Source: a virus (taxonomy: Duplodnaviria > Heunggongvirae > Uroviricota > Caudoviricetes). Taken from it: a stretch of 53,577 bases of DNA. The notes under the pieces are model-generated. The model saw only the letters and a list, made by a program, of their open reading frames with translations. It was not told the DNA's origin and ran no database searches. The DNA lies in IMG/VR virus record IMGVR_UViG_2541047877_000006; one strand, given 5' to 3'. Position numbers and translations under genes: made by a program. Below are positions 28,626 to 28,773 of this stretch, one piece after another (within the stretch, counting starts at the first letter, position 1; each line of letters starts with the position of its first letter).

Positions 28626-28643
28626 GTTATTGATTATTATCAA

Positions 28644-28662
28644 CTTCGAAAAATTTTCGAAG
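28644..28662. promoter_or_regulatory. perfect 19-bp palindrome between terminase and portal
   Basis: CTTCGAAAAATTTTCGAAG reads the same on both strands. Confidence 0.5.
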
Positions 28663-28726
28663 ATGAACAATAATAATTCTCAATTAGCTACACAAAATCT
28701 GCCTCACAATCCCTCACGAATTTTTC

Positions 28727-28751
28727 TATTTTTCGCGTAGCAACGCGTAAA
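28727..28751 (+). repeat. 25-bp conserved element copy A
   Basis: TATTTTTCGCGTAGCAACGCGTAAA; 23/25 identical to 41018-41042. Confidence 0.5.
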
Positions 28752-28773
28752 CATGTATTCAGGAGTAAACATT

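Follow-up and report, generated by a model that had tools for sequence, protein, structure and literature searches.

Late promoters of phage P2 and the Psid and PLL promoters of P4 have a common Ogr/delta site, a TGT-N12-ACA dyad placed ~55 bp upstream of the mapped start. At the late promoters of phage P1, a conserved repeat near a -10-like hexamer takes the place of the -35 box, and in the lambda CII site (TTGC-N6-TTGC) and in pho boxes two short direct repeats lie one helical turn apart. The P1 late genes have special promoter sequences that depend on the phage factor Lpa (PMC8198154). Here, we analyze a short DNA element in the late region of the mEp021 ("mEpimmI") group of coliphages, which are temperate, Nus-dependent, and non-lambdoid. 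This group was described in 2025 in a paper on N-like early antitermination, nut sites, the repressor, integrases and integration, receptors, and exclusion, in which late-region control elements are not treated, and its phages are reported to be as frequent as lambdoid phages in human faecal samples (PMC11893012). The element was recognized as a 25-nt sequence (25-mer) present twice in the IMG/VR virus record IMGVR_UViG_2541047877_000006 (53,577 nt, hereafter the window), once between the terminase gene terL and the portal gene and once upstream of the minor tail gene M. In the searchable literature, we found no description of it, nor of CPZ-55-type islands, in which we also found it, as satellites of the mEp021 family.

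The window is a member of the mEp021 group, its terminase-portal region being 83-87% identical to those of mEp021, mEp010, mEp013, mEp044, mEp515, mEp554, and MagusPhagus. The same region is present as a prophage in 35 of 5,426 complete E. coli genomes, and a scan of species-representative genomes with the capsid protein found no relative. The terL stop codon occupies positions 28623-28625 and the portal ATG starts at 28774, leaving a spacer of 148 nt (28626-28773) with a Shine-Dalgarno (SD) sequence, AGGAG, at 28761-65, 8 nt before the ATG. An earlier note on this DNA, made from the letters alone, had pointed to the length of this gap, which these coordinates reproduce, and to the 25-mer, said to recur at 23 of 25 positions upstream of M. 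Exact matching recovers this recurrence: the two copies differ by two mismatches and lie on the same strand, and 0 of 100 dinucleotide shuffles gave two such matches. In a repeat search, the similarity between the loci extends to 35 nt at 86% identity (28727-28761 / 41018-41052).

The 25-mer is the core of a ~35-nt cis-element specific to the mEp021 (mEpimmI) family, composed of a T5 tract, two direct 7-nt repeats C-R-C-N-T-A-R, and then A-S-A-N-R-TAT. In the phages the repeat units read CGCGTAG-NNN-CGCGTAA, with starts exactly 10 bp apart; an AAASAT hexamer lies behind the second repeat, and ATRTATNCA is found downstream of the element at both loci. Each phage genome has exactly two copies, both on the late-transcribed strand and both in untranslated gaps, 22 nt (portal) and 34 nt (M) before the start codon. 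The genes behind them each open a morphogenetic block, portal that of the head genes and M that of the tail tip.

The core is invariant at both loci in ~50 IMG/VR contigs, in the seven cultured phages named above, in the 35 E. coli prophages, and in further metagenome contigs. Scanning IMG/VR with the pattern TTTTCGCGTAG.A.CGCGTAAA returned 82 stretches, about two per contig of 53-55 kb, all of them placed upstream of portal or of M, and when portal loci were retrieved by protein similarity, 50 of 50 had the core at the same offset, 22 nt before the ATG. In the species representatives (one genome per species, bacteria and archaea), the pattern gave five hits, all in unrelated metagenome-assembled genomes, with ~4 chance hits estimated. 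We measured diversity as mean pairwise pi over unique haplotypes (53 at the portal locus and 30 at the M locus). At the portal locus, pi is 0.012 in the 25-mer, 0.002 in the core minus its three center bases, and 0.011 in the 53-nt block that runs up to the ATG, compared with 0.190 in the 26-nt variable spacer between the terL stop and this block and with 0.218 and 0.268 at the third codon positions of terL and portal. At the M locus, pi is 0.000 in the core, 0.13-0.23 in the flanks, and 0.31 at the third positions of M. Overall, the element shows values of 0.00-0.04 versus 0.2-0.3 at flanking neutral-like sites, and its diversity is ~20 times below that of neighboring synonymous sites. Variation in phage copies is limited to positions 15-17 (CAA, AAG, AAT, AAA, CTA, CGA), a rare T7C, and one T deletion; T12-A13-G14 are fixed while their symmetric partners vary, and in a few genomes center variants are exchanged between the portal and M loci. 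The 25-mer is under strong purifying selection.

The closest outgroup portals, at ~60% amino acid (aa) identity, belong to lambdoid prophages of Enterobacter and Citrobacter. These have another terL (Terminase_3), whose stop lies just 15 nt before the portal gene, in agreement with the tight coupling of terminase and portal genes that the earlier note had taken as the norm. The element was sought in this outgroup gap and is absent from it. In several E. coli prophages with other terL alleles, similarity to the window starts only at ~28694-28705. On these comparisons, the element is a family-specific gain at a mosaic junction.

A third context came from a metagenome scan, which returned the expected phage loci and two contigs (L198 and L160) with the exact core, placed between an HNH-like open reading frame (ORF) and a 108-aa ORF. 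Both contigs have homologues in intZ islands that occupy the CPZ-55 site between eutB and eutA; L198 has no relatives in the IMG/VR, phage, or plasmid collections. Our island set comprised five loci (L203-L207) and a separate island-like record of 8,009 bp. The order of the islands is intZ, a winged helix-turn-helix (HTH) gene, a gene for a 61-67-aa AlpA/Xis-like HTH protein (HTH_17/MerR-type hits, below cut-off), a 195-aa or HNH ORF, the element, small ORFs, a cyclophilin gene in some, an Sf6-type TerS-like gene, a recombinase gene, and an XRE regulator gene. The element is present once, in a gap of ~90 nt before the small-gene operon that leads to the TerS-like gene, whose product falls in PF20901, the family of the phage's own TerS, to which it is 34% identical over the N-terminal part. 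Leaving aside the TerS similarity and a terminator hairpin of a generic kind, only the element, in non-coding DNA, is well conserved between the phage and the islands. The island repeats are of three types, CGCGTAG..CGCATAA, CACGTAG..CGCTTAA, and CACGTAG..CACTTAA, and in the last and most diverged (L205, L207) the second base of each repeat unit has changed from G to A; all copies keep the T tract, the two C-R-C-N-T-A-R units in a 10-bp register, and A-S-A-N-R-TAT. Satellites of the phage-inducible chromosomal island kind have an integrase, a small AlpA/Xis-like regulator, a TerS-like gene that redirects packaging, a size of ~8-12 kb, and no full structural module. With intZ, HTH proteins, a TerS-like PF20901 protein, and ~10 kb between eutB and eutA, the islands agree with this profile and look like putative phage satellites. 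No mEpimmI prophage is present in the five island genomes checked. The most economical reading of the 25-mer is a shared regulatory or protein-binding site, and its occurrence in this third, independent context strengthens that reading.

Several further observations were made on the intZ islands. Those of ~10 kb at the eutB-eutA site of E. coli chromosomes include L203-L207 and L144/L145, and L208 is NZ_CP062904.1. Some also carry an HNH endonuclease, a YafO toxin pair, or a tape-measure-like gene, and one island sequence was deposited twice as a separate "plasmid" record of 8,009 bp, possibly an excised form. In L205, a second, truncated copy of the element, TATTTTTCGCGTAGAAGCGCCTATA, is present at 10608-10632, with 26 nt identical to the phage sequence including the upstream TTTTC; it lies inside an annotated reverse ORF and may be a recombination scar.

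Table 1. Features of the window at the two element loci and in the late region (positions in the window)
Feature	Position	Strand	Remarks
25-mer copy 1, TATTTTTCGCGTAGCAACGCGTAAA, in the portal leader	28727..28751	+	T tract, CGCGTAG (28734-40), and CGCGTAA (28744-50) in a 10-bp register
25-mer copy 2, in the leader of minor tail gene M	41018..41042	+	center AAG, versus CAA in copy 1
3' extension of the repeat	28752..28761	+	CATGTATTCA; counterpart GATATATACA at 41043-41052
Conserved 53-nt block, TTTTTC...SD...(ATG)	28721..28773	+	takes in copy 1 and the ribosome-binding site of portal
70-bp indel in the terL-portal spacer	28626..28695	.	outside the conserved element
19-bp palindrome, CTTCGAAAAATTTTCGAAG	28644..28662	.	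9+1+9, inside the indel; read from the sequence
Second palindrome, CATTGTGACAATG	41001..41013	.	6+1+6; subgroup-specific, not conserved
CACAAT/CACAAC hexamer	28705-28710	+	15-17 nt upstream of copy 1; varies at the last base
Invariant TATAAT hexamer	40995..41000	+	exactly 17 nt upstream of copy 2; putative promoter function
PR'-like cassette upstream of holin	23865-23965		TTGTAG-17-TAAAAT, TAACAAT pause-like element, strong terminator 23921-39, holin ATG 23965
Divergent promoter-like site for the ParE-like cassette	40948..40990	-	TTCACA (40976-71)-17-TATATA (40953-48), after motif GTTTACAAAATGG (40990-78)

Among the systems described, the P2/P4 late-promoter site is the closest functional precedent. 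In both cases a short element precedes several morphogenetic units of a temperate coliphage, and the same element sits on a small integrative element, allowing cross-regulation, in a helper-satellite relation that is putative here. The mEp021 element differs in being built of direct 7-nt repeats in a 10-bp register, where P2/P4 have a dyad, and in having just two copies in the family, in intercistronic gaps near the SD; in addition, no Ogr/delta-like activator was found for it. Its closest architectural precedents are CII sites and pho boxes, which likewise have two short direct repeats one helical turn apart, and the P1 Lpa promoters, with which AAASAT behind the second repeat may be compared. 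The CII and pho repeats have another sequence and serve lysogeny or phosphate control, whereas the mEp021 element lies in the context of late morphogenetic genes. As for P1, no Lpa homologue was recognized, AAASAT is lost in two island types, and a P1-like start site would leave almost no leader before the portal SD. Because its sequence differs and no activator was recognized, the element is not assignable to the P2/P4, P1, CII, or pho classes.

We tentatively favor a reading in which a single trans-acting regulator recognizes the element as double-stranded DNA and through it coordinates morphogenetic expression, putative satellites having copied the site, and this is quite possibly, if by no means securely, the case. 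Recognition of double-stranded DNA by tandem protomers is favored because of the direct-repeat geometry and the base-by-base invariance; such protomers of a single regulator would bind the element on one face of the helix. The regulator would then set the transcription that enters or starts at the two blocks, the element being either part of an activator-dependent internal late promoter or an operator, and the outcome would be coordinate control of portal and M. As in activator-dependent late promoters, the same short element stands before two phage units and an island operon. For the islands, a copied site would serve to synchronize their operon with the morphogenesis of the helper, or else to give an island regulator a means of acting on the helper.

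A number of observations weigh against such a regulator. The small ORFs between Q and the lysis genes give no informative PHROG or Pfam hits, and no binding protein was identified among them; the window encodes no homologue of the island HTH proteins, and the type of element does not track the type of island HTH. Just upstream of holin lies a conserved lambda-type late promoter, PR', with a pause-like element and a terminator, so that Q-modified polymerase could read the whole late region without internal promoters. Hexamer consensuses were drawn from 35 sequences of the M locus and 46 of the portal locus; TATAAT before copy 2 is invariant, but its counterpart before copy 1 is poor and variable at its critical last base. 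A consensus scan calls no sigma-70 promoter at either copy, and no convincing sigma-70 -35/-10 pair was found whose start would fall upstream of the portal SD. With no more than two copies, their common orientation counts for little, and the invariance of the 53 nt up to the portal ATG is equally expected of an mRNA leader or translation-initiation region.

Indeed, the element may instead act in the RNA, as a leader in which the U tract and a CGCG stem-loop or single strand would be bound by a protein, by Hfq/small RNA, or by RNase E, setting the translation or stability of the portal, M, and island cistrons. Next to a hairpin, a U-rich tract forms a classical setting for Hfq or RNase E. Phage and island copies alike lie on the transcribed strand, in untranslated stretches that separate co-directional genes, with an SD and start codon 22-36 nt further on, and the conserved block at portal is continuous through the SD to the ATG. 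A 5-bp stem is possible in the phage copies (with a U.G in copy 2), and the M copy can form a 12-bp bulged stem. Yet the leaders fold no better than shuffles (z = +0.1 and -0.7), and there is no covariation: the phage stem is invariant, and thus uninformative, and the three island types keep 4/5, 3/5, and 1/5 of the putative stem pairs, the one to four lost pairs having no compensating changes. Covariation of an extended stem in the M copy was considered and rejected as inconsistent, the outer stem being often C.A mismatched. Rfam gives no match for the element, whose spacing from the start codon varies (22 versus 34 nt, with an HNH gene inserted in L083). The hairpin is incidental, because CGCG is self-complementary and the island copies lose pairs without compensation; it is the sequence of the element, not a structure, that is conserved. 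We consider action at the RNA level possible, if on the unlikely side.

The DNA-site reading has a more specific form, in which the intZ islands would be satellites of the mEp021 family in particular and the element the shared control site of a helper-satellite circuit. In one variant, a late regulator of the helper would switch on the TerS-containing island operon through the element; in the other, an island regulator would bind both helper copies and throttle the expression of portal and tail tip. Such a circuit is doubtful and, in our estimate, unlikely.

The portal copy lies exactly where different terL alleles join a common head module, and the outgroup has another terL family at this point, raising the question of whether the element is a recombination linker at a mosaic junction, with no regulatory role, kept through viable recombinants and spread by gene conversion and phage-island exchange. 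The swapping of center variants between loci, the scar-like truncated copy in L205, and the island relatives of the 70-bp indel beside the portal copy would fit such a linker. It would leave unexplained, however, the base-by-base invariance next to 26 upstream nt that vary freely, as well as the retention of this sequence at M and in islands, where the flanks are unrelated, and 22-25 nt are too short for efficient homologous recombination. A linker of this kind is improbable.

At the M locus, copy 2 lies in a divergent region, upstream of a conserved 51-aa ORF and a ParE_like ORF (Pfam hit at 40480-40731, minus strand) that accompany it in every genome examined. The element might then be the operator of this reverse-strand toxin/antitoxin-like cassette, with a second copy at portal, and the 10-bp spacing of the two CGCG cores would accord with tandem dimers. 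The element center lies, however, ~90 bp upstream of the start predicted from TTCACA-17-TATATA, no such cassette is present at the portal locus, and none is annotated beside the island copies. The 51-aa protein has no Pfam hit and only family-restricted homologues; AlphaFold2 models it as a single long helix (pLDDT 81, from a shallow alignment and therefore weak), and an operator for a ribbon-helix-helix antitoxin was likewise rejected on this model and on the lack of a DNA-binding domain hit. We hold the operator explanation to be very unlikely.

It is also highly improbable that the element is the recognition or cleavage site of an HNH endonuclease, either homing or packaging-associated. A 157-aa HNH/AP2-type gene does lie between the M-locus element and M in L083 (IMGVR_UViG_2695420423_000006), in L198, in L207, and under hits H90 and H91 an HNH gene directly precedes the island copy, and mEp013 and mEp021 carry HNH genes near packaging or tail genes. 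On the other hand, in most genomes with both copies no HNH gene adjoins the element, and where one does, the site is intact; packaging would not be served by two cuts 12.3 kb apart in the late region, and intergenic gaps are permissive landing sites for free-standing HNH genes.

The window has three nut sites, at 9251-9288(+), 16480-16510(+), and 8033-7995(-), with boxA CGCTCATTAACAA or TGCTCTTTAAAAA and GNRA-type boxB loops, and their number and genomic positions agree with nutR1, nutR2, and nutL described for mEp021 (PMC11893012). The element shares with them a short GC-rich stem, a purine-rich loop, and a location in a transcribed, untranslated stretch, and its CGCG-UAGAAG-CGCG superficially resembles a phage boxB such as GCCGC-UGGAAGU-GCGGC at 9272-9288; it lies in the late region and its stem is unconserved in the islands. 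An antitermination signal, whether as a boxB of the nut kind for the N-like Gp17 or as an additional site where the lambda-type Q would load, is nevertheless extremely unlikely: a scan for CGCTCTTTAACAA-like boxA sequences found the three real nut sites and none near 28727 or 41018, the element loops (AGCA, AGAA) are not of the GNRA type and differ from the real boxB loops (GGAAG, GAAA, GCGA), the only word that the element shares with the window's PR' spacer, GCGTAAAC, is unconserved in relatives that keep the remainder of PR', and neither copy shows the layout of PR', in which a recognizable sigma-70 promoter is followed by a promoter-proximal pause element and, at a short distance, by a terminator.

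Other candidate readings of the element were tried and rejected. An intrinsic terminator would need its T run behind the stem, where here it precedes it, and the terminator scan lists none at 28727-51 or 41018-42. A host NagC/Mlc operator was considered from the consensus TTTCGCG...CGCGAAA; the published site does not uphold it, its fixed bases being only TT/AA at +/-5,6, of which copy 2 breaks AA, and the reading was dropped. A CRP site beside copy 2 is weak and unconserved, a leader peptide (..LFFA-stop) has an unconserved start codon and a frame dictated by the conserved bases themselves, and an analogy with P. aeruginosa AlpA fails since its ABE, GGGACG, is unrelated.

The two palindromes described in the earlier note are both present in the window, the first as 9+1+9 around an unpaired A, the second beside copy 2 (Table 1). 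The first had been called perfect, and it has an unpaired center because a palindrome of odd length cannot be perfect throughout; with one mismatch it extends to 13+1+13 (28640-28666). As RNA, CTTCGAAAAATTTTCGAAG has a folding energy of -9.7 kcal/mol (z = -4.5), which none of 200 shuffles matched. The terminator scan does not call the 19-bp palindrome, and a T run follows neither palindrome. The basal spacer of the family is 78 nt, and 70 of the 148 nt in the window are an insertion: in mEp021 the spacer reads TAA followed by AATCTGCC, and the window carries 70 bases more, palindrome included. This indel is missing in all seven cultured, plaque-forming phages and is found in 14 of 48 IMG/VR portal loci and in 9 of 35 E. 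coli prophages. Three of the 14 indel haplotypes have TTTCCGAAG, in which one palindrome pair is broken, and the sole other match to the indel, 53-60 bp at 83-87% identity, lies within coding sequence of eutA-adjacent islands. Because its indel is absent from all the cultured phages, the 19-bp palindrome is dispensable; it is a component of an unrelated, dispensable insertion and is ruled out as a part of the regulatory system. In place of CATTGTGACAATG, mEp021 and many relatives have tcttgtgacgaag and similar sequences.

The earlier note had described the 25-mer and the palindromes together, had proposed a shared regulatory or protein-binding site from the two copies of the 25-mer, had suggested a motif search in related phages as one check, and had named the absence of both elements from close relatives with normal late expression among the things that would refute it. 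By that measure, half of the proposal survives: the 25-mer is kept at both loci throughout the family, under selection, and recurs in the islands, while the palindromes are not conserved and their part is refuted.

Regarding the context of the late region, Q is lambda-type (PF03589; gene at 17921-18643), and the likely PR' lies 5 kb downstream of it, with ~25 small ORFs between, and is conserved in relatives from AAACAAAYRGAT onward. Its -10-like TAACAAT compares with lambda AACGAT. The sequence TAAAGCCGTATTTGT(T/A)GGG occurs twice, 250 bp apart (23606-23625 and 23857-23876), the second occurrence supplying the -35 of the putative PR'. Three reverse-strand moron cassettes interrupt the late and tail genes: a TagO-like pair (36879-37923), the 51-aa and ParE-like ORFs (40480-40907), and a KilAC antirepressor (41784-42491). 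Strong bidirectional terminators lie behind the tape-measure gene and M; the ParE-like and KilAC cassettes are flanked by bidirectional terminators, and the TagO-like cassette ends in a terminator-like hairpin on its own strand. The portal gene (28774-30141; Phage_portal_3/DUF1073) is labeled "anti-CBASS protein Acb1 family protein" by the NCBI pipeline in nearly all prophage copies, a label that looks misleading because position and Pfam give portal. The SD of M (41066-41072) is a run of G residues, seven in the window and five or nine in relatives, which is slippage-prone and alters the SD-to-ATG geometry.

A 13-nt motif, KTWTACAAAATGG (CCATTTTGTAWAM on the other strand), is present in ~15-20 copies in the window, mostly intergenic (e.g., at 1042, 3967, 8111, 9633, 13034, 16384, 16452, 21698, 21727, 41046, 42573, and 51452), and two copies that face each other flank copy 2 of the element. 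Three times it stands 1 nt before a -35, in TTGACT-17-TATATT (the early rightward promoter), TTTACT-17-TATAAG, and TTCACA-17-TATATA; this layout of motif, 1-nt gap, and -35, seen in the divergent site of Table 1 (40990-40948, minus strand), is thus also found at 8955-8996(+) and 38011-37969(-). The motif may be an UP-like element or a regulator site. The CCATTTTGTA motif, tried as a -10 element, was re-read as an element directly upstream of an opposite-strand -35. Beside the 13-nt motif lie perfect or near-perfect copies of TGTGA-N6-TCACA, the CRP consensus core (13011-13026, 16405-16420, 21680-21695, 42654-42669), with weaker sites at 38014-29, 41004-19, and 51440-55. With at most one mismatch there are six in the window versus ~2 in shuffles, over a -35 or a putative promoter start, and these palindromes could be CRP sites or operators of a phage regulator.

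In conclusion, the element is the strongest conserved non-coding signal in the late region of mEpimmI phages, and since it marks exactly the entry into the head and tail-tip genes, it offers a direct experimental handle. Its presence in islands with a TerS-like protein provides a concrete connection, open to test, between these phages and cryptic islands of one class. Should this connection hold, a helper and a satellite would be seen to have a common late control site for a second time, P2/P4 being the first. The circuit outlined above, if true, would amount to a new system of late-gene control in a coliphage family that was described only recently, and it would give a K-12-type cryptic element a function.

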